The notes beneath the pieces are model-generated. The model ran no database searches. It saw nothing but the letters and a program-made list of their open reading frames with translations, and was not told where the DNA came from. Position numbers and translations under genes: made by a program. Shown here piece after piece: positions 25,605 through 59,282 of a DNA stretch of 64,000 nt. Where the stretch lies: assembly GCA_963847445.1 (NCBI GenBank), contig CAWJZV010000042.1:32001-96000 (forward strand), given 5' to 3'. Origin of the DNA: an uncultured delta proteobacterium. GTDB taxonomy: Bacteria > Desulfobacterota > Binatia > UBA9968. Within the stretch, counting starts at the first letter, position 1. Each line of letters begins with the position of its first letter.

Positions 25605-25647
25605 ACTGCGAGCTGCGGGGACTGCGACCCGTAAAAAGGAGTAGGGA

Positions 25648-42376: not shown

Positions 42377-42491
42377 TGCACGATGCCGTTTCCGGGAACC
42401 ATCGATCTCGGAAAGTTTCGGGTCGTTGAGGAAGAGGAGCGGCAGCGGCCGGCGCCGATTCGGCTGGAGTAAAGAGCGTGAGCTAATTGAG

Positions 42492-42953
42492 CTAGCCGCC
42501 AACGAACTTGCGGCGTAGCCGGGCTTTGCTAAGCAGCCAATGGGCGCGCAGGCTGCGCCTCCACTGGCTCAACGCCTCGAGATTGAGGGCCGAAGGCAAA
42601 AGTTGGCGCGGCATTACCTGGTAGACGATCGGGTCGGTGATGCTGCGGCGCGAGCGCTGCAGGAGGAAAAAGTAGCGCTCGTTGGCAACAAAAACGTAGC
42701 TCTCGGCCATCGGATCGATGGCGCTTTGCGGCTTCAACCAATCTTCATCCACGCTCGCTAGCTCTTCGATGGCATGACCCGCGTGCCGTTCCATGAATTG
42801 GCGCCGGTCATCCGTCGGGATCTCGCGCACGTTTGAGCCTTGCAGTTCGTAGATCGGCGCTTGATCGAAGGGCGTGACCTTGTGCACTTCGTTGCACCCG
42901 CGGCAGTATAGGAAGCGCTCGTTACCTATCATAATTTGGTAACCTACACTCAT
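42492..42953 (-). CDS. Hypothetical protein with CxxC..H putative Zn motif
   Basis: FLYCRGCNEVH..FMERHAGH; co-oriented downstream of the decaheme gene. Confidence 0.6.
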   Translation of the reverse strand: MSVGYQIMIGNERFLYCRGCNEVHKVTPFDQAPIYELQGSNVREIPTDDRRQFMERHAGHAIEELASVDEDWLKPQSAIDPMAESYVFVANERYFFLLQRSRRSITDPIVYQVMPRQLLPSALNLEALSQWRRSLRAHWLLSKARLRRKFVGG

Positions 42954-43065
42954 CGGTTTAAAGATTTAGCCGCGCGAATTTCAGTAAAGCTACTCCCCTC
43001 GCAATCGAACTGGCATCGTTTTCTCGTCGAGTCGCTAGCGCACGCCGTGCCTGTCCGTAACGCGG

Positions 43066-45096
43066 CTATCTCCGATGTACTTTCTCAACAGCAAAGGCGC
43101 GGCCGACGCCGTGGCAGGTGACGCAGGCTTCTTGGCCGTTTATGTTGGTCATCGTGTCCATGTGAATTTTCGCCGGCTCCTTGGTGTGACAAGCGATGCA
43201 GGCGCTGGTGATGGGCTGGATCGCCTTCACGCTGCCATCCTTTTGCGGGATCAGTGTCGGCAAAAGTCCCGCCGGCAATGGCGGCTCGTTCGCTCCGGGC
43301 ACATGGCACTTCACGCAGTTGCGCCGGTCGCCGGGAAAACGCACGTCGCCCATTTCGATGGGGCCCGGCTTCACCGGCGGACCGCCGTAGATGATTAGGG
43401 ACTCGGCCGCAGCCGCACCGGTATGAATCCGATGAATCAGCCGCTTGTAGTGAATGTTTTCCGGTGGCAGCGGTCCCTTAGCCGCTTTGCGTTTGTCCTC
43501 GTCGGTATTGGATGGGTTGTGGCACATGACGCAGAATTCGGCGTTGCGCCGTGCTTCGCCATGAGTCGCCAACGTCAAATGGCAGACGTTGCAGTTTTCA
43601 ATTATCACCGCCTGGCGCCGTGGCACTGCCTCGCTGTCGGTGATGGAGAAATACTTGACGATGTTGAAGCCCACATCGCGTTGGCCTTTGATGACCTCGC
43701 CATTTGGCTTCTTGAGATCGCGCAGCCGAAATCCCTGAATGCCGATGGCGCCTGACCCCAATGCATCGGCTGGAATCGCATAACGGAATTTGTAAATGTA
43801 AACGCCGCCGCCGGCAGGCTGTGCTTTGCGGACATCTTCCTCGACTGCGACTTTGTAGTCCGACGTGGGCCAAGCGACCACCAATCTCAAGTTGTCCATC
43901 CTGGCGGCGTCGAGGGGCTCGCCCTGCTTAGTTTTTACGCTGAAGGTGACTGTAGGTCTTTCCCCGGGTTTACCATCGTCGATTTTTTGAATCTCGAAAA
44001 CCACGCCGGGTAGCTGGGCGGAAAAACCGGGAAAGGTGTGGGCACCGGCGATGGACGGACCGAACTCCGGACCATTGGGCTGGTGGCAACCGACGCATGT
44101 CCCTTCGGCCAAGGGGCCAAGTTTGTGATTTCTACCAGTCGCGAGATCGACATTGTTGTGACAGGACGTACATGCGGCGATACTCGGAAACCTCTTCCAC
44201 TGATCTTTTTTCGGATCGGCGTGGCAGGCCTGGCAGTTGCGCAGTTCCTTGTAGCTGCCGTCGGACAGCATCGCCTGCGGATAGCGAATGTTGGAAAAGT
44301 CTCTGACCCGCTGATTGAGTGCGACGGTGAAGAAGGACTTGCCTTCTATGACGCTGGGCAAGAGTTTGCCGCGGTGAATCTTGTGCACGAAAACTTTGAA
44401 GTCGAGGCTCTCGCCGCTCTCCGGATCGGTTAACTGTTCGGTGTGGCAGAGCGCGCAGCCGGCGACCTCGCGCCGCGTGCCGCCATGGGCTTTGAGTGGA
44501 TCGTGACAATTGTTGCACGAAGCGGTTTCGACGACTGAACGTTGCACTTTGACGTTCGCGCCGGATGGGATGAATTCGAAAACTGGATTAGCGACCTGCT
44601 TGCCGTTTTCGCGGGTGAATTCGCCACCGACAACATGAGTTGCGTTGCGATCGTAATTGGCCGGTAAAGCCGTCTTGAAAGTGTAGGTGAATACACCGGA
44701 GCGAATCTGTTTGAACGAACCGCCTTGGTCGAAGTCGGGCTGGAGCGTTTCGGCGAGCGCCGGTTTCTTGGTTTCGCCTTTGAAGACAAATTCTTTGCCG
44801 CTGACTTTGGTGAGAATGTAGTTGTGGTAGCTGGTTGCGCCGGTGTTGTCAGCTTTGATCGCGGCGATGGTGAACTTGATGCTATTCGCATCAAGGTCGA
44901 TTAGAGCAAAGGGTTTCCCTTGACCATCGGTGTTGGTGAACATCACCTCGGCACGGCCATCGGCGCCAATCTTCACGCCCTTGATCTCCGCTTTAAACCC
45001 GGTGTTGCTCTGCGCAAGAAGCGGCGTAGACCACAACAGGACAATTATGGCCAAGGTTATTCTTAGTTGTGTCGTCAACTTATATGATTGCAACAT
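43066..45096 (-). CDS. OmcA/MtrC family decaheme c-type cytochrome
   Basis: Ten CxxCH motifs in two groups of five separated by beta-rich domains; HKIHRG and HRIHTG distal-His motifs; N-terminal signal peptide. Confidence 0.92.
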   Translation of the reverse strand: MLQSYKLTTQLRITLAIIVLLWSTPLLAQSNTGFKAEIKGVKIGADGRAEVMFTNTDGQGKPFALIDLDANSIKFTIAAIKADNTGATSYHNYILTKVSGKEFVFKGETKKPALAETLQPDFDQGGSFKQIRSGVFTYTFKTALPANYDRNATHVVGGEFTRENGKQVANPVFEFIPSGANVKVQRSVVETASCNNCHDPLKAHGGTRREVAGCALCHTEQLTDPESGESLDFKVFVHKIHRGKLLPSVIEGKSFFTVALNQRVRDFSNIRYPQAMLSDGSYKELRNCQACHADPKKDQWKRFPSIAACTSCHNNVDLATGRNHKLGPLAEGTCVGCHQPNGPEFGPSIAGAHTFPGFSAQLPGVVFEIQKIDDGKPGERPTVTFSVKTKQGEPLDAARMDNLRLVVAWPTSDYKVAVEEDVRKAQPAGGGVYIYKFRYAIPADALGSGAIGIQGFRLRDLKKPNGEVIKGQRDVGFNIVKYFSITDSEAVPRRQAVIIENCNVCHLTLATHGEARRNAEFCVMCHNPSNTDEDKRKAAKGPLPPENIHYKRLIHRIHTGAAAAESLIIYGGPPVKPGPIEMGDVRFPGDRRNCVKCHVPGANEPPLPAGLLPTLIPQKDGSVKAIQPITSACIACHTKEPAKIHMDTMTNINGQEACVTCHGVGRAFAVEKVHRR

Positions 45097-45139
45097 TCTT
45101 TTGCCCACAGGGAAGGCCAAACCAATGTTTAATTACGAG

Positions 45140-45861
45140 CTATGGGATATCGCTGCTATCCTCATCAAAAGAAATATCAAACGTTACCGCCTTGGCGTTG
45201 GCGGAAAAAACAATTTCACCGAGCCGGTGGGCGAGAAAATACACTGTGCCCACGTTCTCATAATGTTCCAGTAGGGCATGTGCCATGCCATCGGCCGGCG
45301 ATGGCAGAATTTTTACCGCACTGCCGTCAAAGAACCCCAGCACATTGCGCTTCGCGCGCCATTTTGCCGTCGCGTCGCTCGCCGCAACGTTTGTCGGATC
45401 GGCGATCTTCAGGTGCTCCGCGGTATGGTAGAGCGCGATAAGTTTAGGTTCCCGCAATAATGCCGGCAGGACTTCGCCGATCGATAGCTTGCTATACGTT
45501 TCGGCCCACAGCTCTGTAGGGACGGCCAGATGAGCGTGGTCGGCGTCCAAGGGAAACAAATAGCGCGCCGCGCCGTTCTCCAACATCTGTTTTAGATGGC
45601 GGGTGGTTTCGGTGATGAATCGGCAGGGTGCGTGAAACTGTTTTCCCTGAAAGGATGCGACGAATTCACTGTTGCCGTAGTAGCAGCCGTGCGGTTTTAG
45701 GGCGTGGCGCAGCCGGCTGCCGAACTGTTCTTGATAACGATAGGCGTTTTCGATTTCTACCGGGGTAAAATACCAGCCGTTATCGATGCCGAGCGCCGGT
45801 CCGGCGCTATTTAGGAACAGACACGATCACAAGTATTCTAAACGCCAGTCTTATGCTTCAT
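45140..45861 (-). CDS. Secreted hypothetical protein, probable frameshift in signal peptide
   Basis: Frame stays open ~80 codons upstream of the annotated ATG 45586 (CLFLNSAGPALGIDNGWYFTP...); GGAG-ATG at 45861. Confidence 0.6.
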
Positions 45862-45887
45862 GTCGGCTCCTTTCGATCGCAGCCCTG

Positions 45888-47357
45888 TCAGCGGATGAAT
45901 CCGAAAAATCTCCAGTAGGGGACACTCACGGCGAGTGCCAGCAACGTGGCCAAATACTTGGCGGCCAGAATCTTACGCGCTTGGCTATGCGAGAATGCTG
46001 AGCCTCCGCCCCCGGAATAGGCGATCTGATACGGGCCGTCTTGATAGCCGAGCAGGAAACACTCGCCAATCATGATCGATGCCACAACCAAGATGCCGGG
46101 ATGAATGCCAACGCTCTCGCTCAGTGGAAGAATGGTGACGGTAAATAATGCCGCGGTAGGAGTCTTGCGGAGAAAAAAGCGCACGGTTGAAACGAGCAAG
46201 AACAGGACGAGGAGCAAGCCCAACGGTTGGCCGGCGAATCCGCCGAGCAGATGGCCGCTAAGCGTCATGAAAAAAGCATCCACTTTGAGGGTTGAGGCCA
46301 CCACCGCCAGACTGTTCAGGACGCCGAAAAACAGGATAAGTCCCCAGTCGAGATCGTTGCGAAATCCTTTTTCATCGAGCACGCCGGTCAACAAAAAGAT
46401 CAGGAGCGCGGCGAGCGCTACCCAGGCCTCATTGACGCCGTGGAAAGAAGTCGTAAGCCAACCGACAACGGTCAGTATCAAAGTCGTCAAGGTGATCCAC
46501 TCCTTACGGGTGAACGAGCCTGGCATCATGACCTCGGCCCTGACAGCGGTGGCCGCAAGACTTGCCTTGTCTTGGGGCGACATCGGGAGCAGAAGCTGGA
46601 CTGCGAAAAACATGAATAGGGAAATCGTTAGCACCGCCGGTAACGTGGCGACGAACCAAGACAGCCAGCCAAACTCCGCTTTGGCCGACGGCGGGAGAAA
46701 ATTCCAGCCGATCAGACAATGTTCGCCCGCGGTCAGGAACATAAATGACATTTGGCTGAAACCAATAAACGCCGAAAGCGAGATCGCGGCGGAGCCGTTA
46801 GAGCGTGGCGCAAAACCGGCGGCTTGGATTATTGCTTGACTCACCGGCACAGCGACCGCAGCTCTAGCTTTGCCGGTCGGTAAAAGCGGTCCTGAAAGCA
46901 CCCCGGCACCGAGCAGGAACAAGGTATAAGTTTTCTGGCAATGGATCGGTATCCAGCGCAGAAGTTTGAGCGCAAGCCTTTCCAGCAGTGAAGTCTTGCC
47001 GATGGCGGCGGCGATACCCAGCGCGCCAACGGTGAAAAACCAGGAGTTCTCGGAAAAGCCGGCAAGAGCCACCTTCGCCGGGACGATGCCGAAGACCACC
47101 CAGCTGAGGAGCAACATTAAGCCGACGATAAATTCATCCAAAACCTCAAGCACCCAGAGCGTTACCGCGACGATCATAGTGGCGAGGAAATGCATTCCCT
47201 TGGCGCCGAGAGGGGTAAACGGCGGCATTGTCCAAACTGCACAACCTACCGCAAGGGCCAGCAGAACGATCAACGTGTCTTTGCTAGGAAGAAGTAGCGA
47301 TTGTGGCTTTGCAATCGACTGCACATTTACTGGCAACACTTCAGTTTCCGCTTCCAT
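45888..47357 (-). CDS. SLC13/DASS family anion transporter
   Basis: Multi-TM; ALAGFS..SWF, PTGKAR, MFLTA, W.TTSFHG, DWGLILFFG, SVPYWRFFG. Confidence 0.9.
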   Translation of the reverse strand: MEAETEVLPVNVQSIAKPQSLLLPSKDTLIVLLALAVGCAVWTMPPFTPLGAKGMHFLATMIVAVTLWVLEVLDEFIVGLMLLLSWVVFGIVPAKVALAGFSENSWFFTVGALGIAAAIGKTSLLERLALKLLRWIPIHCQKTYTLFLLGAGVLSGPLLPTGKARAAVAVPVSQAIIQAAGFAPRSNGSAAISLSAFIGFSQMSFMFLTAGEHCLIGWNFLPPSAKAEFGWLSWFVATLPAVLTISLFMFFAVQLLLPMSPQDKASLAATAVRAEVMMPGSFTRKEWITLTTLILTVVGWLTTSFHGVNEAWVALAALLIFLLTGVLDEKGFRNDLDWGLILFFGVLNSLAVVASTLKVDAFFMTLSGHLLGGFAGQPLGLLLVLFLLVSTVRFFLRKTPTAALFTVTILPLSESVGIHPGILVVASIMIGECFLLGYQDGPYQIAYSGGGGSAFSHSQARKILAAKYLATLLALAVSVPYWRFFGFIR

Positions 47358-47473
47358 TGTACTTCCCCCTCGCAGGCCGTTCGAGACACACAAACACCCT
47401 TCGCGATCGTCAAATCCACAGGCGCGATCGCCTTGAATCTCTCGCCGCGGTGTGATTTTCCCCCGGGAAATCA

Positions 47474-48541
47474 CTACTTGCCGACCGAGACTTGCGCGTA
47501 ACCCGCCCGCAGTTCACTGACCGCCGGGTGATTGGGTCCCAAGCTTTTTTCCACAATGATGACAGCCCGTTGATACAATTGTGCCGCTTCATCGTTACGA
47601 CCAACTTCGCGGTAAAGCTCGGCGAGGTTCTTTAGTGTCGTGCCGACATCGGGATGTTCTTTCCCAAGAAACTTTTCACGGATCGTCAGGGACTTCAGAA
47701 AGAGTGTCTGCGCGTCGGTGTGGTTGCCGAGTGCGCGCTCGAGATTGCCAAGGTTATTCATGCCGAGGGCAACATCGGGATGGTCGATGCCGTGTTCGGC
47801 GCTCCAGATTTGAATCACCCGGAGGTAAAGCGCTTTGGCCGGTTTGAACTTTCTCTGCTTGTGATAAACCCAGGCGAGATTGTGGACGGCGGTGGCGAGT
47901 TGGGGATTGTCAATTCCCAGCGATTGCTCCTGGATCCGTAGCGTTCGTTGAAACAAGTCTTCCGCTTGATCGAAGCGGCCTTGGAGCGCGTGCAAGCCGC
48001 CGAGATTGTTCAACACGACGGCCAAGTCCGATTGGTCTGGGCCTGAATAGTTTTCCCATATTTTAATTGCGCGCTGGTACAACGATTCCGCTTCGGCAAA
48101 GCGCGCCTGCGAGCGATAGACGCCGGCCAGGTTATTTAGCTGATCGGCGAGATCGGGATGATTCGCCCCCCACGTCGTCTCCGTGATCGCGCCCGCGCGC
48201 AGATAGTGTTGTTCCGCTTCGGTGTATTTGCCTTGCTCGGCTTTTAGCCAGCCAAGATTATTGTGGTAGTAGGCCATCTCGGGATCGTCGGCGCCTTTTT
48301 TCTTCTGGCGGATTTCGAATACTTCTTGGATGATGGTTTCGGCGTGGGAGTAGAGGCCTCGTCGCTTATAGCCATCAGCGGTGCTTTCCATGCGGCTGAG
48401 CGACTCGGTGTCAATGCCGAGAGCCGCCTCTTCCCGGGCGCTCAATTGTTCGGCCGGTGCGAAGTCAGCGAACGAGTGTCGAGCAAACAAAAACGAAGTT
48501 AGAATCACCGCCGCGCCGGCAAATCGTTTGAGGTGTTTCAT
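47474..48541 (-). CDS. Secreted tetratricopeptide repeat protein (42-aa TPR_10/12 type)
   Basis: Signal peptide; about seven repeats of HPD.A..LNNLA..Y..QG.Y.EAE.LYQRA. Confidence 0.9.
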   Translation of the reverse strand: MKHLKRFAGAAVILTSFLFARHSFADFAPAEQLSAREEAALGIDTESLSRMESTADGYKRRGLYSHAETIIQEVFEIRQKKKGADDPEMAYYHNNLGWLKAEQGKYTEAEQHYLRAGAITETTWGANHPDLADQLNNLAGVYRSQARFAEAESLYQRAIKIWENYSGPDQSDLAVVLNNLGGLHALQGRFDQAEDLFQRTLRIQEQSLGIDNPQLATAVHNLAWVYHKQRKFKPAKALYLRVIQIWSAEHGIDHPDVALGMNNLGNLERALGNHTDAQTLFLKSLTIREKFLGKEHPDVGTTLKNLAELYREVGRNDEAAQLYQRAVIIVEKSLGPNHPAVSELRAGYAQVSVGK

Positions 48542-49035
48542 AAGTCCCTACTGGTGAAGTCGGCCGGGTGACATAAGCGGACCGGCATGGCCGATGGCGG
48601 TCTGGCAATTCCTAAAGCTGCAATCAGACTGCGGAGCCAGCGCCTTGCCCGGTTTATCGCCGGGCGCATGATCACCAGGCTTTTTGCTTCAACCTCATTG
48701 TACTGGCGCAGGACCGGCCGTAACCGCCCGCTGTAAAACTTGACTTCGATCTGCACCCCGTGATCGCGTAGCTCTCGGCCGGCGTGCTCCAATCGTTGCG
48801 TCAGGTTCGATTGCGGCTCGTCGCGATCATGCGGTGCCGCGAAGGGGCTGGCAAAATCGCCCCGCTTAGCGCTTTGGATCGTCAGAAGTTGACCGGTAAG
48901 CTCGCTGAAGCGGTCAACGTCCAAGTGGACCAAGAAGACGATCTTGGTGTCGGGTCGAGCCATATCTTCGAGATAGGGAAGAAACTCTTCGATGTGATCG
49001 CGGCCCTTGATCGGCACGAGAATTTGGCAGCGCAT
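48538..49035 (-). CDS. Universal stress protein-like protein
   Basis: QILVPIKG..KIVFLVH..GVQIEVKFYSG..LVIM; GAGG RBS. Confidence 0.65.
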   Translation of the reverse strand: MRCQILVPIKGRDHIEEFLPYLEDMARPDTKIVFLVHLDVDRFSELTGQLLTIQSAKRGDFASPFAAPHDRDEPQSNLTQRLEHAGRELRDHGVQIEVKFYSGRLRPVLRQYNEVEAKSLVIMRPAINRARRWLRSLIAALGIARPPSAMPVRLCHPADFTSRDL

Positions 49036-49064
49036 CGATTTTTCCTCAGGATGAGGATCTCTAC

Positions 49065-49081
49065 AGCATGGGTCGTGCCAA
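49065..49081 (-). promoter_or_regulatory. Sigma54 -24/-12 promoter of the USP-TPR-DASS-cytochrome operon
   Basis: TTGGCACGACCCATGCT (GG-N10-GC) ~30 nt upstream of the USP start. Confidence 0.75.
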
Positions 49082-49176
49082 GCAGAAGTTTTCTTTCCAG
49101 GCCAGCTCAACGCCAGTGAAATATAAGAACAATCTAATCGCGGCATGATTGCGATTGGATTAAATCGCGGTGGCGA

Positions 49177-49216
49177 AGTGTCTAAAAGAAAACAGGCCAG
49201 TGTGGGAAACCACTCA
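49177..49216. promoter_or_regulatory. Putative tandem enhancer-binding-protein site (UAS)
   Basis: Two 18-bp imperfect palindromes AGTGTCTAAAAGAAAACA and AGTGTGGGAAACCACTCA, 4-bp spacer; same architecture as 56731-56770. Confidence 0.6.
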
Positions 49217-49271
49217 GGTTAATCGAGTGGGCTAGTAGAAACTAGCTGAGCGGTGATATTGATTTCCCGTC

Positions 49272-49380
49272 GGTCATGCCGACCGTAGGCCGGTATCCAG
49301 GTGGCGGACCGCGTCCGTCATACCGTTGAAGAACGGTATCCAGGTTGAGGGGATGGACCCCGGTTTTTACGGGGACGACG
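49272..49380. repeat. REP-like GTCAT palindrome cluster
   Basis: gtcatgccgaccgtaggccggtatccagg, gtcataccgttgaagaacggtatccagg, atggaccccggtttttacggggacgacg; homologous to 28806-28943. Confidence 0.75.
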
Positions 49381-49439
49381 GGATTGGCTTCGCTCGAAGG
49401 TGATGGGAATCACCATCGTCGAGTGAAATAAGAGAAATA

Positions 49440-50795
49440 TCAGTTGATACCGAAGGACTTAAGCAGCTTTTGAAAATAAGCGCGGTCCAGACCGAGAAGC
49501 TTTGCCGCGGCGGTGCGGTTGCCGTTGGATTGCTGAAGGGTTTTGACAATCACTTCGCGGCGGTATTCGTCGACGGTCTCTTGATAATTGAGGTGCGCGT
49601 TTGCCGTAATGGGCCGGGATACAGCTAAGATTTCCACCGGTAGGTCGTTGGCCTGGATCGCCGGCGGTTCGCCGAGGACCACCGCGCGCTCGATGACGTT
49701 GGCGAGTTCTCGAACGTTGCCGGGCCAGTCATGGGCCATCAGCTTGGCCTGGGCGTCGTCGGCGATCCGCAGGAAATCTTTTTTCGACTCCAGGGAAAAG
49801 CGCCGGAGAAAAAACTCGGCCAACTCTGGGATATCTTCCTTGCGCTCGCGGAGCGGCGGCAAGGTGATCGGCACGACGTTGATCCGGTAAAATAGATCCT
49901 CGCGAAATCTACCGTTCTTGACCGCGGCCTGCAGGTTGCGATTGGTCGCGGCGATGATGCGCACGTCGACGCTGATCAGCTCGGTGCCGCCGACCCGCTC
50001 GAACTCCCGCTCTTGCAAGAAGCGCAGCAGCTTGGTCTGAATCTCCTTAGTGATGTCGCCGATCTCGTCGAGAAATACCGTGCCGCCATGGGCCAGCTCG
50101 ATCTTTCCCTTCTTTCTTTGCTGGGCGCCGGTGAAGGCGCCGCGCTCGTAACCGAACAATTCGCTTTCCAACAAGTCTTTCGACAGGCCGACGCAGTTGA
50201 TCGCGACGAACGGCAGGTCGTGGCGCTCGCTCCAGTTATGCACGGCGCGGGCGAACAGCTCCTTGCCGACGCCGCTTTCGCCGAGCAGCAGGACTGTGCT
50301 GCGGGTCGCCGCGGCTTTTTTAGCGGCGTTGATCACTTGATTGATCTTCTCGCTTTTGCCGAAAACCATTTGGTACCGTTTGTCGACCTCTTGGGTCAGC
50401 ACTTCAATGCCGCGGCGCAAGCGCTGTTGCTCCATGGTGCGTTGCACCACCATCGCGATATGGCTGCCTTTAAACGGTTTGGCGACAAAATCCGCGGCGC
50501 CTTCTTTCATCGCCTCGACGGCGATGTCGATGGTGCCGTAGGCGGTGATCATGACCACCGGAAAATCTTTCTCCTGGCGGCGCAGCTCTTTGAGAACTTC
50601 CATGCCCTTCATTCCCGGCATCTCGATGTCGAGGAAAGCCATCTGCGGCGTTTGTTGGCCGATCCTCTCTAAAGCCTGGTTGCCATCGGTGGCTTGCATG
50701 ACCCGATAGCCGAGGGATTCCAGCCGGTCTTTGAGCGCTTCCTGGATGTAGGGATCGTCGTCGACGACTAGAATGGTTTCTTGCGGTTCAGTCAT
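49440..50795 (-). CDS. Sigma54-dependent response regulator (NtrC family: REC-AAA+-HTH)
   Basis: [59 protein letters not shown]. Confidence 0.96.
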
Positions 50796-50806
50796 AGGGA
50801 CAGACC

Positions 50807-53804
50807 TCAATTCAGCGCAGCTTGTAGTGACGACTGTTCGACATGCGCAGGAACGGTGAAATAAAACGTGCTGCCGGCGCCGGTGGTGCTCTCCACGCGG
50901 ATCTGGCCGCCATGCATGTCGATCAATTTTTTACATATGGCCAAACCGAGGCCAACCCCTATGGCCTTTTCCCGCCCGGGATGGCTGATTTGGTAGAACT
51001 CGTCGAAGATTCTGCCCGCTTCTTCGGGCGGAATGCCCGGACCGTTATCGCTTACGCCGACCTGGAGCCAATAACCGCTCTCGACGGATTCGAGAAAAAT
51101 GCTGACTTTGCCGCCATTGGGCGTGAATTTGACGGCGTTGGTCACTAAATTGGTGAGCACCTGAGTGACCTTGTCGCGATCGGCCCAGGCCAGATGATCG
51201 CGGTTAGGCGAACCGCCGTCCAGTTCGATAGCCTTGTCCCGAGCCATCGGCCGAAGATTCTCGACTACCTCGGTTATCAGCGAAGATAATTGAAATGTGC
51301 TGGGTTTGATCTCCATGCGGCCCGATTCGATGACCGAGAGATCGAGCAGGTCGTTGAATCAAGCGGGTTAGCCGCTCGCTGCTCTCTTTGATGCCGGTGA
51401 TGTAACGCGCTTGCTTGGCGCTGAGCGGCCCGGTTAGACCGTCGAGCATATTGTCGACCAAGCTGCCGATGGCGGTGAGCGGGGTTCTGAGCTCGTGGGA
51501 GACATTCGAGACAAAACCGGATTTGAGTTTGTCGAGCTCTTTGAGGCGATCGTTGGCCGACTCCAGCTCCCGCGTGCGCGCCTCAAGTTCCTGAAACAGG
51601 TTGATGTTTTTGATCGCGACCACGGCTTGGTCGGCAAAGGTGGTGACCAGTTCCACTTGCGGCTCGGTGAACGGCTCGACGAAGTGGCGAAAGACCACGA
51701 TGACGCCGATGGAGACGCCCTCTTGGAGCAGTGGCACCGCCAGCACGGTGCGCGTGGCGGTTGATATCGGCCCGCGCAACGGCGGCGGTTGTTCCAAGAC
51801 ATCGTTAATCTGCACCGGGCTCTGTTGGCGATACGCCTGCATCGCCGCGCCGTTCTCGTCGGCCGGTAGCGGCTGCTGCTCGACGTCGCACAGGCGATGC
51901 ACACCATTGCGATAGTGGGCGACATAGCGCAGCGCGCCGGTGTTGTCCGCCAGGCGAATGACACCGCCGGCGGCCCGAGTCAGCCTGACGGTGTCGGCGA
52001 TCATGGTATCGAAAAAACTTTGTAAGTCGCTCAGGGTATGCGCCATGGCGCGCAGCATTTCGGCCACCGCGGTTTGACGCTCCAGGGCATCGACCACTTC
52101 GCGATTGCGCCGTTCGAGCTCTGCGCTTTTGCTTTTTGCTTCTTCAAACAGGTTAACGTTGTCGATGGCCGGGCCGATCTGATCCGCCATGGAAGTGAGC
52201 AGCCGGCGCTCTGGTTCCGTCAATTGGCGCGGCAACCGGCCATTGCAGACAATCGCGCCCAACACCCGTCCCTTCGATTTGATCGGAAAGCTCGCGATGA
52301 AATGTATGCCCAATTCTTTCGCCGCGTGGCTTTGGCTAGCGGCCAGATAGGCTGGATCGCTTTGCGCATCGGCGAACAGCAGCGGTTCCCCGGTTTCGGC
52401 GACTCTACCGACAATTCCTTGGCCGCGCTTGAATAGTCTTTGCGCGAATCCTTGGGGCGCGTAGCCGGTCAGAGCGCGCACCCGCAGATCCGTTTGGTTG
52501 GGTTCATAGAGGTAGATGAGCACCGCATAGAGTTCGAAGATCTCAGAGATTTTCTCCGCCACTTGGCGCAATACCACGTCGATGTCGAAGGACTGAGTCG
52601 CGGTGGCGGCGACATCGAGAAGCGCCGTCAGTTCTTTGGTGCGCTGCTGCACTTTATCTTCAAGTCCTTGATAGGCGTTTTTGATTTCGCCGGCCATCTT
52701 GTTGAATTCATCGGCGAGCACTTCGATCTCATTGCCGGTTGCGATTTCGATACGGTGGTTCAAGTCGCCGGTACCGATTCTTTCGACGCCGCGGCGCAGA
52801 GCTTCCAATGGGCGGACCACGCGCCGGGCGACGAAGACGCTGGCGACCAGGGCCGTGGCCAAACCGATAAGCAAGAGGGTGGAGGTGCGTAGAATCGACC
52901 CATACAAGCTCTTGTGCGCCTCGCTAAGCGGCTGCTCGACGAAGACGGCCCAATCAAGGTTGGGGAGGAAGACAAAGGAGCTCAGCACATCCTGCCCGGC
53001 AAAGTCCTTGGCCATGGTCGTCCTCGGTGTGGGCGCCACCGGGTTGGGTTGAAACGCGGTCCGTACCTGGGTCAAATGCGCCGCGCGTAAGCGCTGTAAA
53101 ACTAAACCGGGATTGGAATGGGCGATCAGATCGCCGGCGCGGTTCACGACGTAGGCGTAACCGGTATCGCTGAACTTGAGATCGCGCACAACTTCCCAGA
53201 TCTGGCGCAAGTCGACTTGAGCTTGCAGTGTGCCGATGACATGGCCGGGAAATTGTTCAATGGGCACCGCGATGGCGATCGATGGCTCAGATTCATCGAC
53301 GAAGTTGACCGGACCAAAAAAAGTGACGCCCTGCTTGGCCTGGAGGAAGCTCGCAGCCTTGGAGAGGTTCTGTTCGTCGGCGTTTGGCTCGACCCTAAAG
53401 CGCGAGACGAAAGCCCGCACCCGGCCGTCGGCGCCAATGGCGAGCAGTTCGCTGATGGCTGGCGCGATCATAAGCAGTTTGGCCAGCTCGAACTGGTACG
53501 CCGGACCGATGCCCTGGCGCGCGACGACGCTGCTTACGGTCGCTGCCTTCATGTGTTCTTCGATGGTGAGAATGAATTGGGCGATGCGCCGCGCCGCGTT
53601 ACTGGCGATCTCGCCTTGCACCACGGCGATCTGTTGGCGGCTTTCGCCATAGCGGAAGTAGAGTTCGAGGGCGCCGCTGACGATCAAGCCGCCGCCGAGC
53701 AGCACGACAAAGACCATAAAATACTGCCGTGCCAGGCGGCCAGAATGATTTTGGATTTTGGTCTGCGGGGCGGCTTGTCGATTTGGGATTGTTTCGGAGG
53801 TCAT
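50807..53804 (-). CDS. Sensor histidine kinase (Cache-HAMP-GAF-GAF-HisKA-HATPase), frameshift ~51360
   Basis: Two TMs flanking a Cache-like domain (YAYVVNRAGDLIAH), HAMP (NEIEVLADEFN.M), two GAF-like domains, SHELRTPL; HATPase (NAVKF, DNGPG, GLGL) in the next frame. Confidence 0.92.
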
Positions 53805-53881
53805 CGCGTTTGGCAGCCAAGTCAATTATTGGGATAACCCAAGTTTTTCTTTTCACCACGAAGCGTCCATGAGCGCGGCGC

Positions 53882-54234
53882 GAGCCGCAACCGAAACTCG
53901 GAATATCTCTCGCAAAGACGCAAAGGCCGCAAAGGTCGGAAAATCACGGTGAATAAATTCTTCAAGATAATTCATCTCTGTCCCTCCGAACTGGGCTGAG
54001 CTTCGCGCCTTTGCGAGTATGACGGAATCCCATGTTCTAGTACTCCCGTTGACCGGAAAATTTGCGCAAGCCGCGTAAATTTCGAGGAGGTACGAAGGAC
54101 ACGAAGGTTTCGGATGGTTCACCGCCGAGACGCGGAGGACGCAGAGTAAAGAGTTTTTTGATTAAAATCTCTCCGAACTCAGCGAACTCAGTGCCTCCGC
54201 GGTGAAAGCTCTTTTCCCCCTTCGGTTGCGGCTC
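53882..54234. mobile_element. MITE-like non-autonomous element with perfect 14-bp terminal inverted repeats
   Basis: gagccgcaaccgaa (53882-53895) and ttcggttgcggctc (54221-54234); homologous pieces at ~21258 and 63899. Confidence 0.6.
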
Positions 54235-54265
54235 CTTCGAGTTTCATTGTCTGTCCAATCCCAAA

Positions 54266-55249
54266 TCACTGAAACACTTTGTCGGCTAAGATTAGCCGCT
54301 CCGGCGGAATTTTTAGACCGACCGCTTTAGCGTTTTTAAGATTGATCACCAGTTCCAGTTGGCGCGGCGCCTCGACCGGAAGTTGATCCGGCTTGGCGCC
54401 TTTGAGTATGCGGTCGATGTACCACGCGCCGCGGTAGCCGATTAAATACATATCGGGCGTGTAGGTCATCAGCGCGCCTTCGTCCGCGACCTGGGCTGCC
54501 GTGCAGCCGAACAGCGGCACGCCCATCTGCGCTGCGGTATCGGCCAGCGGCTTTATCCCTCTGAAAACCGCGGTGCAGATGAGAAACGCTCCGTCGATGG
54601 CGCCTTTGGACATGGGCTGGAGGACTTTCACTGCGTCTGCGCTGGAAGTGACGGGATGTTCGCTCAGTTGTATGTTCAGATGTTGGGCGATGCGCCTGAC
54701 CGAGGCGCGAATCGACTCCGGGGTGCCGATGGCCGGCCGCCCGTCGTAGAATAGCGTCACCCGGCGCAGCCCTGGTACGATTTCCTTGAACACCGCCAGC
54801 TGTTTGCCATTGTCCGCCTGGTCGCGGGTGTAGCTCAGTCCGGTGAGATTGGTATCGGGACGAGCGCGCGATTTGACGAACCCCATTCTGACGGGGTCGA
54901 GCGAGGGGGCGAAGACAATCGGGATCTCCTTGGTGACTTGCTGGGCGATGGTGGTTTCGCTGGCGCTCGAAGTGACGATGACGTCGACTTTCCGCCGCAC
55001 CAGTTCCGTCAGACGATCGCGAAGCTCCGCCGCGCTTTCGCTCCGCAGATGGTGAACGGTGAGGTTCTTACCGTCGATGTAGCCCGCCTCCTCCAAGCCG
55101 TCGAACAGGCCCCTTACTTGGGGTAGAACGATGCCGGGCTTACCGATGCCGATCAGCACCATCTGAGGTAACTGGGATCGGGATTGCCCGGCAAACGAGG
55201 CGCCCGTTAGTAAAAAGATAATGACTGGCAGTGCCCAGCAGTCTTTCAT
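54266..55249 (-). CDS. ABC transporter substrate-binding protein (ABC_sub_bind/DUF534 type)
   Basis: GLEEAGYIDGKNL, IPIVF..DPV.MGFV, NLTG, RILKGAKPDQLPVEAP..LELVINLK.AK..G. Confidence 0.92.
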   Translation of the reverse strand: MKDCWALPVIIFLLTGASFAGQSRSQLPQMVLIGIGKPGIVLPQVRGLFDGLEEAGYIDGKNLTVHHLRSESAAELRDRLTELVRRKVDVIVTSSASETTIAQQVTKEIPIVFAPSLDPVRMGFVKSRARPDTNLTGLSYTRDQADNGKQLAVFKEIVPGLRRVTLFYDGRPAIGTPESIRASVRRIAQHLNIQLSEHPVTSSADAVKVLQPMSKGAIDGAFLICTAVFRGIKPLADTAAQMGVPLFGCTAAQVADEGALMTYTPDMYLIGYRGAWYIDRILKGAKPDQLPVEAPRQLELVINLKNAKAVGLKIPPERLILADKVFQ

Positions 55250-55286
55250 CCTAATCCCCTGGTTCAGCGCGCCGGCAGGTCGCGGT

Positions 55287-56536
55287 TTACCGAAGCGATC
55301 CTCCACGCATGACCGTCTGCAAAGTCGCCAGAGTGAAAAGCGTCGGCTGATAACCTTGATTGTAGGACTCTTACGGCATCGACCAGCGTCGATCGGCCAT
55401 TTTGCACGTTGAGTAACGACCGCGGTGCCGAGGGACAGGGTCTCTTGGCCGTCGGCAAGTTTTACCGGTGTTCGCAGTGAGAACTGTTCCTTCCAATAGT
55501 TTCCCTTGCCATCCCAAGTCATTGCCCATAGAACTTCCAAGGGTCAGCGTATCGAAATAGAGTCGCCTTTCGGGGATAACAGTAACCGGAATCCTTGGGC
55601 GAGATCTCAACGCCATAGGCCTCGACGATTTCCCAACCTTCGTTTGACGGCAGATAGTCCCCGCTCTTGCGTTCAAACGGGATGCGTCTCCTGAGACAAG
55701 ATTGCCCAACATTTTAGTCCGGCCAAGAAGTCGGTAATTAAAATCGGCAACCTTTGCATTAAAGTTGTTGATGTCGTCGAAATTAAACTCACTCGGGGCG
55801 ATGGTGGCGCACCGTTGGGTCGGTGGCGCGCGGCGTACGCGGCGAATGCTCGGCACATAGATATAAAGATCGTCTTCTCTGTTGGCATCGCTATAGCGAA
55901 TCTCCAGGGTTGTCGTCCCAGCCGTGTCGCGCGGATATTCGTCGGCGCGCAGCTGCATCCAGTCGATATGTTCGTAGCCTGGGAGCGATGGCTTTGCGTT
56001 CAAGGTGACGCGACCGCGCGTTCTGATCGTGTGATGGAGCACGTCTGCGCGTCTTTCCGAGCCATCTTTTTCGATGGCGTAGCGGATGATCTTGCCTTCC
56101 CCCGTGCCGCCGCCGGTCTTGTAGTCGTCGCCGAGCCAGCGCCAGTAGAAGTTCCAAATAAGTTTCAGCGCGATTTGCGGATCGTTGGGAGCGACTTCAG
56201 GAAACGGCGATCCGGCGACATAGTTCAGCAGCTCGCCGTTCGCGGCTAATTTGACCGAACCGGAATATAGGCTCGTTGCCGCGTCAGATACTCTTTGGGA
56301 TTGCTCACGAACCGGCTTTGCTTGATCTTAAAACTGTAGCCCGACTTAATGCGGTTGAGCAGGTTCTCGCCGACCATGCCTTTGGCGCGCTGCCAATTGT
56401 TGGGGCCGATGGTGTCGCCGGGTTTGAGGTCAGGATCGGCGGCGTGAGTCGTTGCCGGTACGCCGAGCAAGAAAAAAACCAAAATCGCGAACCAGCGCGC
56501 AAGCCAATGAATTTTCTGTTGGGTCGGCATCATCAT
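55287..56536 (-). CDS. DUF1329 family protein, several frameshifts
   Basis: Signal peptide, LKPGDTIGPNNW, NYVAGSPFP..DPQIA.K.IWN, DDLYIYVPSIRRVRR, DD.NNF. Confidence 0.82.
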
Positions 56537-56618
56537 CGAATGACAGCTCCCGCGAATCGGCAGTGAGTGAGAGGATCGTCTCGTCTGAGCAACCCCAGTA
56601 TCGCAAGCGAATTATTAT

Positions 56619-56634
56619 AGCAAGCCACGCGCCA
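56619..56634 (-). promoter_or_regulatory. Sigma54 -24/-12 promoter for DUF1329-SBP(-HK-RR)
   Basis: TGGCGCGTGGCTTGCT (GG-N10-GC with TTGC). Confidence 0.75.
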
Positions 56635-56730
56635 TGGTAGGCTGGCTGCAGCTCTAGCAGCCTCTACTGTCGTAATTTGCTGATTGTCAGCCTCATTGAG
56701 GTTAGTGCGGTTCAATCCAGACGAGGAGAG

Positions 56731-56770
56731 TGAGTATTTTTTTACACATCTCTGTGTAGATTTTGATACA
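56731..56770. promoter_or_regulatory. Putative tandem UAS between divergent sigma54 promoters
   Basis: TGAGTATTTTTTTACACA-TCTC-TGTGTAGATTTTGATACA; two 18-bp units, 4-bp spacer; second unit contains TGT-N10-ACA. Confidence 0.6.
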
Positions 56771-56821
56771 TGCTATTGACGATTATGACGGGTCGCCAAT
56801 GAATTAGCTCGGTAATCACGG

Positions 56822-56836
56822 TGGCATCTGGCTTGC
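56822..56836 (+). promoter_or_regulatory. Sigma54 -24/-12 promoter for the DUF1302 gene
   Basis: TGGCATCTGGCTTGC (GG-N10-GC), ~37 nt upstream of ATG 56874. Confidence 0.75.
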
Positions 56837-56873
56837 CCATGGGGCGAAAGAAACAGGTTCATACGGGAGTGAT

Positions 56874-58529
56874 ATGAATCGGCGGTCGACATGTCATTTA
56901 TGGGTGGGGTTAACTTGGTTGGCGACGATCACGTCCACGGCGCCGCTCCAGGGCAGCGGGTTCGAGCAATTCATTCAAAACAACGTGAGATTCGGCGGTT
57001 TCATCGAAAACGCGACGGGGCTGGCGGTAAGCCATGGCAGCCGTTTCTTCGATACTACGAACCGTTTCGACATGAACCGGCTGACCTTACAGCCGGAACT
57101 CAACGTCAAGTTCAGCGATGACTGGAAGCTCTTCTTGGCGTGGAAGTTTGTCAAGGAGCCGCGCTACGCAATGGAAAGCGCCAGCCGCAAGCAGTCGGTG
57201 CAGCCGAGCGCCGGCGTGGGCGGCCTGTCGAATAAGTATTACGACGAATACAGTCCGGTGCCATGGGAAGCGGTGCTGGATTACAAACCGAGCGACCGGT
57301 TGGCGCTGCGCTGGGGGCGGCAGTTTATTTCCTGGGGCGAGACCGACGGCATTCGGCTGCTCGATATAATCAACCCGCAAGACGGGACGTTCGCCCCGCC
57401 GGCGGCGCCAAATCTTTTCAATCTGGACGAAACCCGAATCCCATCTTGGGGATTGCGCGGGCTTTACACGATTCAACCCGAGTCCAATACGATCCTCGAT
57501 GTTTTTGTCCTGCCTGGGGCGCTGGACCGGGCCAGACAAAGAGTCGATGAAGTGGTCGGCAGCAATGATACCAGTGACCGCACCATCAAATACGGTCGCT
57601 GGTCGAGCCATCCCGAGACGCGCATCGCCTTTGGCCGGCTGTTTGCCAATCCGCTCGGCGCGGCGCCGGTGGTCGTGCCCTTTACCCAGCGCGAGCTGCC
57701 GGAGTCGGCGGATTCGTGGAAACTCGGCGGCCGGCTGACGCATAATTTAGGCAAGCTCAATTTCGCCTTGGGTTATATCTGGGGATACAACCCCCAAGCG
57801 GCCGACATGGTTTTCAAGATGAAGGGTCAGCCGGCGCTGTGTGGGCCGCCGCGCTGCCCGCCCAACGGCACCAGGATCAACTTGGACTTGATCAACGGCC
57901 GCGGCCATAGCGTCGCCGGACAGTTCAACTATCCGATCGGCGATATGATGCAGCTGCCGGTCAACTCGACGCTGCGCGGCGAAGTGGTGCTTCTGCCGCA
58001 TAAGCCCTACAACATCGCGGCTTATCCTGGGCGCAATTGCCAGACCGGCGCCGCCACCGGCCTACGCGCCGGTCCGAGCTGCCGATATCCCGACGGCGTC
58101 GTCGACAAACATACGCTGCGCTACGCCCTCGGTCTCGATCGCACGACGCTCATTCCACTGCTCCACCCAGACGATCCCTGGCGCGCGTTCAATCTGTCAG
58201 TGCAACTTTTTCAGAGCGTTATTTTCAATCACGAGGACGGCATTCGGCCGTTTTCCAGCATGGAGCGGATCAAACGAGTATCGACGACACTGACGTTTCG
58301 CGCCGGCACCGGCTACTTGGGCGACACGCTCCTGCCGGATATCTTTCTCGCCTACGACCCGGCAGGTTACTACGCGGTCAATCCGGCGCTCAGCTACGCC
58401 CCGCCGGGCAACGAAAAACTCCGCTTCACTTTGACGGCAGTGATCTACGGCGGGCGCAATAAGTTCAAGTCCTTCGGTTTTTTCGACGAGAAGGATTCGG
58501 TGTTTCTCAAGATGCGTTATCAGTTTTAG
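56874..58529 (+). CDS. DUF1302-like outer-membrane beta-barrel protein
   Basis: Signal peptide; LRWGRQFISWGETDG..LLDIINPQD, LDETRIP; amphipathic strands; C-terminal MRYQF beta-signal. Confidence 0.8.
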   Translation: MNRRSTCHLWVGLTWLATITSTAPLQGSGFEQFIQNNVRFGGFIENATGLAVSHGSRFFDTTNRFDMNRLTLQPELNVKFSDDWKLFLAWKFVKEPRYAMESASRKQSVQPSAGVGGLSNKYYDEYSPVPWEAVLDYKPSDRLALRWGRQFISWGETDGIRLLDIINPQDGTFAPPAAPNLFNLDETRIPSWGLRGLYTIQPESNTILDVFVLPGALDRARQRVDEVVGSNDTSDRTIKYGRWSSHPETRIAFGRLFANPLGAAPVVVPFTQRELPESADSWKLGGRLTHNLGKLNFALGYIWGYNPQAADMVFKMKGQPALCGPPRCPPNGTRINLDLINGRGHSVAGQFNYPIGDMMQLPVNSTLRGEVVLLPHKPYNIAAYPGRNCQTGAATGLRAGPSCRYPDGVVDKHTLRYALGLDRTTLIPLLHPDDPWRAFNLSVQLFQSVIFNHEDGIRPFSSMERIKRVSTTLTFRAGTGYLGDTLLPDIFLAYDPAGYYAVNPALSYAPPGNEKLRFTLTAVIYGGRNKFKSFGFFDEKDSVFLKMRYQF

Positions 58530-58629
58530 CTCTGCTGTGCGACACCGAGAATTGGTTCACACGCCCTTGTCACTGCTTTCTGAGTCACATAAGATCGCGC
58601 GTGAATTTACTCCAGGAGCAAATAACCAG

Positions 58630-59082
58630 ATGATTCTTGACGGCACCATCGATCTCAATGTCCCAGTCGAAAAGGCTTGGGACTTTCTGATCGATATCAA
58701 TAAATTTTCCACCTGCTTGCCGGGTATCGATTCGGTGACGCAGATCGACGCGACGCGCTTCGACGGCGTGATTTCGGCGACGGTGGGGCCGATCTCGGGA
58801 AAGTTTAATTTTCGTTCGACCATCGTCGAGAGCAGGCCGCCGGAGCAGATGGTGGTGAAAACGGAAGGCACGGACAGCGTGACCAAGAGTACCGTGAATG
58901 CGGATATGACCGTCGATCTGCGGCGGGTTTCGGACTCGACGTCGCAGATGGATTACAAAGCGGACGTGAAAATCAAAGGACGGCTGGGCATCCTGGGCGA
59001 CATGGTGTTGCGCGCGACGGCGACTTTGATTTTGCAGGAATTTACCAAGCGGCTGCATCAGGGGCTTGGCGAGCAGGCGTAA
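58630..59082 (+). CDS. coxG: CoxG / SRPBCC family protein
   Basis: PVEKAWDFLID....CLPG...VGPISGKF...GRLGILG. Confidence 0.8.
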   Translation: MILDGTIDLNVPVEKAWDFLIDINKFSTCLPGIDSVTQIDATRFDGVISATVGPISGKFNFRSTIVESRPPEQMVVKTEGTDSVTKSTVNADMTVDLRRVSDSTSQMDYKADVKIKGRLGILGDMVLRATATLILQEFTKRLHQGLGEQA

Positions 59083-59097
59083 TTTTAGTATGGGGTT

Positions 59098-59227
59098 AGC
59101 AGGCCGTTGAAAAAGGCTCATCGCTTTCGTTGCGCTCGATCACCTCGCTCCAACGTACCGTGACAGTACGTTTTCGCTCTTCGATTTCTCGCGCGCCTCG
59201 CATCTGAACCATTTTGAACAGCCTGCT
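59098..59227. mobile_element. 130-bp MITE-like element with IS-type terminal inverted repeats
   Basis: Left end agcaggccgttgaaaaaggctca vs right end (reverse complement) agcaggctgttcaaaatggttca, 19/23 identical; no transposase. Confidence 0.6.
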
Positions 59228-59282
59228 GCGAGGTTTCACTTAAATCTGCGATAAAATTCTGATTACAGATTAGGAGTTTTTC

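Follow-up and report, generated by a model that had tools for sequence, protein, structure and literature searches.

A candidate sigma-54 two-component regulon with a conserved sensory operon and mosaic cargo, including an OmcA/MtrC-family decaheme cytochrome, in an uncultured member of Binatia

MtrC and OmcA of Shewanella are lipoproteins, and DctB/DctD exerts sigma-54 two-component control over a dicarboxylate carrier. The four-gene cluster DUF1302-DUF1329-BNR-RND (COG1033) shows co-fitness in Shewanella and Pseudomonas, according to two preprints (Price et al., bioRxiv 10.1101/072470; Thompson et al., bioRxiv 10.1101/2020.07.04.188060). The available part of a study of Geobacter sulfurreducens places sigma-54 and enhancer-binding proteins in the regulation of respiratory metal reduction (PMC2725144). 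Here we describe a locus in a 64-kb stretch of DNA (the window, on contig C42) of an uncultured Binatia bacterium, in which the genes of an NtrC-type two-component system and a DUF1329 gene lie between a divergent DUF1302 gene and a downstream operon containing a decaheme cytochrome gene of the OmcA/MtrC family. The titles and abstract openings of the publications found on Binatia MtrC and Binatota multiheme cytochromes contain nothing on this arrangement.

Gene content was established from a listing of open reading frames (ORFs) over the full window and from Pfam and NCBIfam family scans (Table 1). The gene list and order are as given in an earlier annotation made from the letters of the DNA (the sequence-only reading). 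The comparison with related genomes supports the prediction that the two-component system drives the sigma-54 promoters of the DUF1302 gene, of its own operon and of the downstream operon at whose end the decaheme gene lies. We consider it fairly probable that the locus represents a sigma-54 two-component regulon that is specific to Binatia and has mosaic cargo, and not a single machine. Gene content, the positions and conservation of the promoters, and the synteny patterns are observed; the last of these show a mosaic, and not the self-contained block seen by the sequence-only reading.

The pattern TGGCAC-N5-TTGC was searched for with at most one mismatch. Three -24/-12 elements with one mismatch each precede the DUF1302 gene, the DUF1329 gene that heads the sensory operon, and the USP-like (universal stress protein-like) gene that opens the cargo operon. 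They stand where the sequence-only reading had placed them, and are three of only four such matches in the window. Their non-random features are the placement 30-80 nt before start codons, the correct strand and the conservation in relatives. All three recur in the nearest relative, G003, where the counterpart of the 49066-49080 element is TGGCACGAGCCATGC. In G022 the DUF1329 element is kept, the -12 element of DUF1302 is TTGT, and the contig ends just after ntrC. Equivalent elements precede DUF1329 in L036 and L034. A -24/-12 element downstream of ntrC (at most one mismatch, same strand, within 1 kb) is present in nine of the ten loci with enough downstream DNA, the background rate of such matches being 0.03 per kb per strand; in G070 (L036/L143) it lies directly between ntrC and the cytochrome gene, with one mismatch. 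Besides elements at canonical spacing and an AAA+ activator (PF00158, Table 1), the genome contains rpoN (212 bits, contig C9). Sigma-54 control, proposed by the sequence-only reading, is well supported by comparative evidence. The short start of the USP-like gene at 49035 was fixed because 28 of the 34 homologues of its product are 154-165 aa long (the rest are 94-192 aa); the listed 202-aa ORF is too long.

Orthologues of the kinase were surveyed in 12 genomes, with one locus in each, and these genomes represent at least five genera. The gene order DUF1329, periplasmic binding protein, kinase was found in all 12, and in all 12 the protein encoded between DUF1329 and the kinase belongs to PF04392. 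The ntrC gene follows the kinase gene in 11 loci; the contig of the remaining one breaks off within the kinase gene. DUF1302 faces this operon in four of the 12 loci, those of the window genome (G000), G003, G022 and G017; these four genomes have no strong match to PF14870, the best one in the window genome being 28 bits on contig C27.

The genes downstream of ntrC differ between relatives. In the window, G003, G077 and G089 a USP-like gene comes first after the promoter. This gene is followed by the gene of a 153-aa protein in G003 and by a second USP-like gene in G077 and G089; a USP-like gene also follows ntrC in G031, where no promoter was found. In G070 the cargo consists of the cytochrome gene, a monoheme cytochrome c gene and the 153-aa gene, followed by a second promoter and a USP-like gene. 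In G069 it consists of the 153-aa gene, a gene which we take from its motif to be phosphopantetheinyl-transferase-like (265 aa, L034 9017-9814), the cytochrome gene and a cytochrome c gene. A TPR gene follows ntrC in G072, with a DASS fragment (64%) and an orthologue of the 228-aa protein (59%) on separate small contigs, and a gene of a 120-136-aa protein follows it in G076 and G074. Hence the decaheme cytochrome is among the cargo in three of ten loci (window, G070 and G069), always behind the same NtrC, and the 153-aa gene is near this NtrC in G003, G070 and G069. Every piece of the cargo occurs with this sensory core in at least one other genome. The full set (USP-like, TPR, DASS, 228-aa, decaheme and CxxC/HxxH proteins) was found only in the window genome, and this cargo operon is the longest seen.

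The conserved unit is the operon encoding DUF1329, the PF04392 periplasmic binding protein, the dCache/HAMP/GAF/GAF kinase and the NtrC-type activator. In the mechanism that we infer, the dCache domain of the kinase would detect a periplasmic ligand, helped by the binding protein and possibly by the LolA-like protein DUF1329. The kinase would phosphorylate NtrC, which would activate sigma-54 RNA polymerase at its own operon, at the divergent DUF1302 gene and at the cargo operon just after ntrC. The binding protein has no adjoining ABC transporter and is likely to be a co-sensor. The sensor operon would then come with a promoter-ready slot in which different envelope genes are collected. The cargo genes may well be co-transcribed: from 49035 down to 42492 all genes share one strand, no gap between them exceeds 113 nt, and there is no enrichment of terminator-like sites (23 found, 20.5 expected).

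The 684-aa ORF of the cytochrome contains ten CXXCH motifs (residues 202, 222, 296, 317, 342, 510, 530, 602, 641 and 666). The protein scores 413.2 bits against TIGR03507 (cut-off 209.3, covering 45-674) and 172 bits against PF22113 (cut-off 30), with two PF22113 stretches. By sequence comparison its best solved relative is MtrF (3pmq; E 2.5e-25, match over 280-674). A lipobox is absent: the N-terminus MLQSYKLTTQLRITLAIIVLLWSTPLLAQS is free of cysteine, and there is no cysteine in the first 200 residues. The signal peptides of most Binatia orthologues end with AxA before Q and have no lipobox; only L036 has an ILGC-like box, and the betaproteobacterial cytochrome of L073 has a VVGC box. This member of the OmcA/MtrC family is thus exported by Sec and is not a lipoprotein; its most probable role is that of an inducible terminal redox protein.

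The neighbourhoods of cytochrome homologues were surveyed in 44 pattern-found loci from other genomes. The sensory operon (DUF1329, binding protein, kinase and NtrC) adjoins the cytochrome gene in two of them (L034 and L036), and a sigma-54 activator gene is directly upstream in nine. In seven loci, mostly from Acidobacteriota, the cytochrome gene is followed by genes for an MtrA-like decaheme and/or a 678-aa protein, which is the classic mtrCAB order; the homologues in such loci are distant (32-40% identity). Most Binatia orthologues (58-63% identical) are encoded among aldo-keto reductase/DoxX/glyoxalase or ABC/NMT1/FemAB genes. A tree of 36 full-length homologues was built with mafft and FastTree; it leaves out ORFs with fewer than ten CXXCH motifs or outside 640-830 aa (L042, L052, L053, both pieces of L068, L070, both copies in L073) and loci with no called cytochrome ORF (L064, L066, L067, L071, L072). 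Binatia sequences form two clades. Clade 1 (support 0.98) has 14 sequences in stand-alone contexts. Clade 2 (support 0.84) consists of the window cytochrome and those of L030, L031, L033, L034 and L036; in all five members with upstream DNA a sigma-54 activator gene is beside the cytochrome gene.

No mtrA or mtrB gene was found in the window: contig C42 has a single ORF with at least four CXXCH motifs, and PF11854 matches occur only on contig C28. There, an MtrB/PioB gene (299 bits against PF11854) stands beside a gene for an MtrA-like decaheme (4+6 CXXCH motifs in two frames). The lack of Mtr partners noted in the sequence-only reading thus holds for the window. That reading had named a cytochrome pairing with an MtrAB encoded elsewhere as evidence against itself; one half of this, an MtrAB-like pair elsewhere in the genome, is present. 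The C28 cluster (about 19900-29300, minus strand; L001 = 21611-26299) is of the MtrAB/PioAB-like porin-cytochrome type and contains genes for a 470-aa monoheme protein, a 5-heme 386-aa protein, the MtrA-like decaheme, MtrB and a 443-aa protein with nine hemes, as well as a cytochrome-b-like gene that is spread over three frames.

The distribution of these genes was tallied in the genus (the window genome and 30 others) and in a wider set of 90 genomes of one family; genomes flagged as unpublished were included (G005 in the genus, G035 in the family), and many genomes are 60-90% complete, which makes absences soft. In the genus, the cytochrome (E<1e-100) is present in ten genomes, MtrB in nine and both in three (G000, G018 and G028). 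With G034, G070 and G069 added, MtrB is present in four of 13 cytochrome-bearing genomes. Several of those where it was not found (G007, G034) are 97-98% complete, and others are 67-92% complete. Since MtrB was not found in nine of the 13, such cytochromes must often work without it. A phyletic link of the cytochrome with MtrB or with DUF1302 was sought across the genomes and none was found. The window cytochrome may dock on the C28 system, but this cannot be the way in which such cytochromes generally work in the lineage; the decaheme would either dock on the C28 porin-cytochrome or act in the periplasm. This suggests that the OmcA/MtrC family can exist outside MtrCAB and with no lipid anchor, in genomes where MtrB is not found.

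The DUF1302 protein matches PF06980 with 43.1 bits (cut-off 23.2, over 68-551), which is the only match in the genome, and by Pfam both DUF1302 and DUF1329 are single-copy. The two genes are adjacent and divergent, 340 nt apart. Fragments of the DUF1329 gene, whose frame is broken here by seven insertions, match hidden Markov models of the family with 56 and 91 bits. The absence of BNR and RND partners, noted in the sequence-only reading, is confirmed within the window; MMPL matches were found on other contigs of the genome. A cluster of DUF1302, DUF1329, BNR (Ycf48-like) and MMPL genes next to lnt was found in L094 (8394-17488, G029) and L085 (10319-18350, G070). The DUF1302 orthologues in these clusters are 59-62% identical to that of the window, and the cluster partners score 122-128 bits and 96-97 bits. 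In six further relatives, DUF1302 and DUF1329 at the least stand in tandem. The apolipoprotein N-acyltransferase gene lnt, which is divergent from the cluster, is kept in three loci and may point to a role in lipoprotein or lipid trafficking.

Several observations weigh against a regulon of the kind proposed here. The number of one-mismatch promoter matches in the window, four, is not above chance (5.0 +/- 2.6 in shuffled sequences), so the count alone carries no meaning. The shared activator motif (upstream activator sequence) of the sequence-only reading could not be recovered by k-mer comparison of the upstream regions or by a repeat search. The only 10-mer (at most one mismatch) common to upstream regions is AATC(G/A)CGGTGGC, which overlaps one -24 element. 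An 8-mer search (one mismatch) in seven non-redundant orthologous regions downstream of ntrC reached at most 6/7, the same as in shuffles; L088 and L141, which nearly duplicate the window and L140, were left out of this set. Four genes and about 4 kb separate the cargo promoter from the cytochrome gene downstream, so that an internal promoter is possible; a two-mismatch -24/-12-like element, TGGCATGGCACATGC (45276-45290, minus strand), inside the 228-aa gene and 180 nt before the cytochrome ATG, could be such a promoter or a chance match. In four candidate RNA runs only 6-13% of the sampled words are present. In clade 1, which comprises 14 of the 20 full-length Binatia cytochromes, the cytochrome gene has housekeeping genes of no evident relation to it as neighbours, and the search gave no -24/-12 element. 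Therefore sigma-54 control is not general for the cytochrome family, and looks from the compared loci like a trait of clade 2. Finally, if the frame breaks in the sensory operon considered below are real, the sensor is dead in this strain.

One alternative is the integrated envelope machine of the sequence-only reading, in which DUF1302, DUF1329, the TPR protein, DASS and the decaheme would form a ligand-induced porin-cytochrome conduit of a non-Mtr kind, in which passage through the outer membrane and the transport of anions are linked with multiheme redox chemistry. All these parts do lie in one sigma-54-controlled neighbourhood of the window genome, where DUF1302 and DUF1329 are single-copy and stand apart from their usual BNR/RND partners, and the nine of 13 cytochrome-bearing genomes in which MtrB was not found also speak for it. 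However, OmcA/MtrC, DUF1302, DUF1329 and SLC13, which the sequence-only reading had proposed to search for together, are not conserved as a unit: around the 44 cytochrome homologues, DUF1302 is adjacent in 0/44 loci, DASS in 0/44 and DUF1329 in 2/44. Strong DUF1302 matches occur in 14 of the 31 genomes of the genus, and only four of these genomes also have the cytochrome, against ten that have the cytochrome in all. G070 has the sensory operon together with the cytochrome, but its DUF1302 is on another contig in the canonical DUF1302-DUF1329-BNR-MMPL cluster, whereas G003 retains DUF1302 and the sensor and has no cytochrome. The locus does not encode an MtrA-like periplasmic cytochrome to pass electrons through the barrel, and an MtrAB-like pair is present on C28. 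An alignment-based prediction of a complex between DUF1302 (25-551) and domains I-II of the cytochrome (30-356) gave no answer (score 0.00, mark 0.32), and speaks neither for nor against binding. We found no evidence in favour of a DUF1302-based electron conduit, and such a machine seems very improbable to us. A related proposal is that the Binatia decaheme, freed from MtrAB and from a lipid anchor, is a soluble periplasmic or secreted redox enzyme under the DUF1329/binding-protein/dCache sensor. Together with TPR-DASS and DUF1302 it would handle an imported redox-active anion, e.g. a metal-carboxylate chelate, which would enter via the barrel and be reduced or oxidized in the periplasm by the decaheme, the ligand being taken up by DASS; DUF1329 paralogues would be ligand-presenting co-sensors, which, if true, would be a new role for the DUF1329 family. 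We regard this proposal as improbable.

Another possibility is chance juxtaposition in a rearrangement hotspot, the TPR-DASS-228aa-cytochrome segment having been inserted between the USP-like and 153-aa genes with no functional link to the sensor or DUF1302. In G003, whose proteins are about 95% identical, DUF1302 is divergent from DUF1329-SBP-HK-NtrC-USP-like-153aa-molybdo-hydroxylase (SBP, periplasmic binding protein; HK, histidine kinase) with nothing between these genes, and the locus has no TPR, DASS, 228-aa protein or cytochrome; therefore the segment is an insertion in the window genome or a deletion in G003. Elsewhere the same pieces stand beside the same flanking genes: in G019 the cytochrome gene is directly divergent from coxG-gmc, the pair that flanks DUF1302 in the window, and the molybdo-hydroxylase gene adjoins the 228-aa orthologue in G029 and G009 and the TPR-DASS pair in G074. 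Thus the region is a rearrangement hotspot. Further, the DASS transporter has no orthologue in 60 relatives (best 32%). Against chance, the same kinds of cargo are found independently on the same core in other genera (the cytochrome in G070 and G069, TPR in G072), the promoter in G070 is directly before the cytochrome gene, and the window cytochrome falls within the activator-linked clade. We consider pure chance rather unlikely. The last alternative is that the locus is decaying, with an inactive sensor and a regulon that is either silent or deregulated. Compared with G003 and G022, the kinase gene has a 1-nt insertion at 51355, which splits it into two frames, and the DUF1329 gene has seven insertion events, at 56288, 55696, 55688, 55562, 55546, 55412 and 55367. 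Both frames are intact in relatives (1005 aa and 413 aa in G003), and the insertions are specific to the present assembly, being absent from G003, G022 and G017. Base 51355 is missing from the contigs of all four public runs compared, which come from four different studies and are about 97% identical to the window; runs X4 and X7 lack bases 55562 and 55688, X9 covers 55688 and does not have that change, and X1 does not cover these two positions. Two run contigs spanning DUF1329 differ from the window by 8 and 18 gap letters. Decay would also agree with the clustering of the insertions: DUF1329 has seven within about 1.2 kb, and the DUF1302, binding-protein and ntrC genes have none. However, all eight events are insertions, and substitution divergence in DUF1329 (37/1303 letters) is not raised in comparison with neighbouring stretches (14/731 and 21/558). 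Other conserved genes of this genome are split as well, namely the MtrA-like gene (two frames), mtrB (two) and the cytochrome-b-like gene (three) on C28, the ntrC paralogue on C9 and the GMC oxidoreductase gene in the window; split cytochrome genes are also found in the few-contig relatives G019 and G003. For these reasons assembly error fits better than neutral decay: the broken frames of the kinase and DUF1329 genes probably result from assembly errors, and we give decay little credence.

Table 1. Features of the sigma-54 two-component locus and its flanks in the window
Feature	Position	Strand	Evidence and remarks
Molybdo-hydroxylase large subunit	40112-42376		Family scan; flank of locus
153-aa cytoplasmic protein, no known family	42492-42953	-	Last gene of cargo operon
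OmcA/MtrC-family decaheme c-type cytochrome, 676 aa, Sec signal peptide	43066-45096	-	TIGR03507, PF22113
228-aa open frame, secreted-protein type, family-less	45140-45826	-	Stop-to-stop frame
DASS / Na-sulfate-symporter-type anion transporter, 490 aa	45888-47360	-	PF00939, PF03600
Secreted TPR-repeat protein, 355 aa	47474-48541	-	TPR_12 239 bits; signal-like N-terminus
165-aa protein, weak USP-like fold	48538-49035	-	First gene of cargo operon
Sigma-54 -24/-12 element TGGCACGACCCATGC	49066-49080	-	30 nt before ATG at 49035
NtrC-type response regulator	49440-50810	-	PF00158 239.7 bits, PF00072 111.9 bits, PF02954 (Fis-type HTH)
Sensor histidine kinase, TM-dCache_1-HAMP-GAF-GAF-HisKA-HATPase	50807-53825	-	Pfam; two frames in present assembly
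Intergenic multi-copy repeat element, between kinase and binding-protein genes	53826-54265		blastn, depth
PF04392 (ABC_sub_bind) periplasmic binding protein	54266-55249	-	PF04392 142 bits; signal-like N-terminus MKDCWALPVIIFLLTGASFAG
DUF1329 (LolA-like) gene, heads sensory operon	about 55290-56536	-	PF07044 and PF17131 on fragment; at least three frames
Sigma-54 -24/-12 element TGGCGCGTGGCTTGC, precedes DUF1329 operon	56620-56634	-	About 80 nt before DUF1329
Sigma-54 -24/-12 element TGGCATCTGGCTTGC	56822-56836	+	37 nt before DUF1302 ATG
DUF1302 outer-membrane beta-barrel candidate, 551 aa, C-terminus ...RYQF	56874-58529	+	PF06980; divergent
CoxG and GMC oxidoreductase	58537-60492		Family scan; opposite flank of locus

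The sequence-only reading named the products of the first and last cargo genes a USP and a Zn protein. The 165-aa protein has no Pfam match at E<=10. Its AlphaFold2 (AF2) model is of low confidence (predicted local distance difference test, pLDDT, 61), and the best Foldseek matches are USPs (Rv1636 with E 2.3e-4, MJ0577 and TeaD; E 2e-4 to 1e-2, template modelling (TM) scores 0.33-0.51), so that only a weak USP-like fold remains of the first name. The 153-aa protein has no Pfam or NCBIfam match and 36 homologues, all unnamed or 'hypothetical', the sole taxon-bearing source name among them being Candidatus Binatota. Residues C17, C20, H57 and H60 are invariant in the alignment and could form a metal site, which is what is left of the second name, as no family can be assigned. 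The AF2 model of this protein (pLDDT 73.6) has no fold match in the PDB at E<=0.001.

The 228-aa protein has no Pfam match at E<=10. Its orthologues in G009 (81%) and G029 (70%) start with MKI..(hydrophobic)..PALG followed by MDGGW and have signal peptides. In the present assembly the 5' end of the gene, which codes for the signal peptide (about 45827-45862), is frame-broken; the 'secreted hypothetical' of the sequence-only reading is therefore borne out by the orthologues, with no intact signal peptide in the window. The DASS transporter scores 109 bits against PF00939 (cut-off 27) and 63 bits against PF03600, and 136.9 bits, below the cut-off of 198.6, against TIGR00785. Outside the 60 relatives mentioned above, orthologues at 51-64% were found in G072 and G074. 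The TPR-DASS pair is also present in G074, and in G072 the TPR gene is directly after ntrC. A paralogous sensory locus on contig C9 (about 73300-86000) has the order SBP-DASS (939-aa frame)-NtrC (59% identical)-SBP-HK (40%)-SBP-response regulator, with the ntrC gene split between frames. In at least 11 relatives, judged by coordinates, DASS and kinase paralogues are encoded within about 13 kb. Thus this type of kinase and activator recurs with DASS transporters.

A direct repeat, two copies of CGGTATCCAGGT, precedes one of the promoters: CGGTATCCAGGTGGCGG at 49291-49307 and CGGTATCCAGGTTGAGG at 49334-49350, with a spacing of 43 nt. It is 210-270 nt upstream of the promoter of the USP-like gene and is a candidate activator site; in G003, which does not have a 14-nt stretch at 49353, it is partly deleted. 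The fourth one-mismatch promoter match in the window, TGGCGCAGCAGTTGC (21123-21137, minus strand), is 24 nt before a 211-aa minus-strand ORF that overlaps a longer plus-strand ORF. The repeat between the kinase and binding-protein genes is about 260 nt long and has 120 blastn matches across the contigs of the genome. In public-run contigs from four studies the depth at 53826-54265 rises 10-50-fold, and all four runs have many loose ends at 53882-53884 and 53940-54160. This repeat is probably outside the system. An Rfam scan of 40000-60000 gave no family reaching its gathering score. The GMC oxidoreductase gene is split over overlapping frames, 59283-60125 and 59308-60492, a probable indel error; its orthologue in G019 is split too.

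A regulon with a defined sensor and three promoters would, if this reading is true, offer a testable handle on the regulation of MtrC-type cytochromes in uncultured soil Binatia; it does not amount to a new class of electron conduit. The uncharacterized DUF1329 family, whose gene heads the sensor operon in 12 of 12 loci, appears here in a second role, which could aid in finding its ligand. With Shewanella MtrCAB/OmcA (MtrF 3pmq, OmcA 4lmh, MtrC 4lm8, MtrCAB 6r2q) the window cytochrome shares TIGR03507, PF22113 and ten CXXCH motifs. It differs in having no adjoining mtrA/mtrB and no lipobox cysteine, in standing at the end of a sigma-54 operon, and in not co-varying with MtrB across the family (4/13 genomes). 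In Geobacter sulfurreducens, as far as the available part of the RpoN study extends, the cytochrome family, the lineage and the regulators are other ones, and a DUF1329/binding-protein sensor operon is not described there (PMC2725144). The locus resembles the Shewanella and Pseudomonas cluster of the two preprints in the adjacency of DUF1302 and DUF1329, and the full cluster is present in Binatia G029 and G070. However, in the window, G003, G022 and G017 the two genes are divergent with no BNR or MMPL gene at the locus, and in the window DUF1329 is the first gene of a sensor operon, with a sigma-54 promoter in front of each of the two genes. The analogy with DctB/DctD would lie in the dCache (double-PDC) kinase, the NtrC-type activator, the -24/-12 promoter and an anion transporter as a putative target. 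Unlike DctB/DctD, the present system has an extra PF04392 protein, DUF1329 as the first cistron and two GAF domains in the kinase; its transporter is DASS and not DctA, and the cargo adds a decaheme cytochrome and an outer-membrane barrel.

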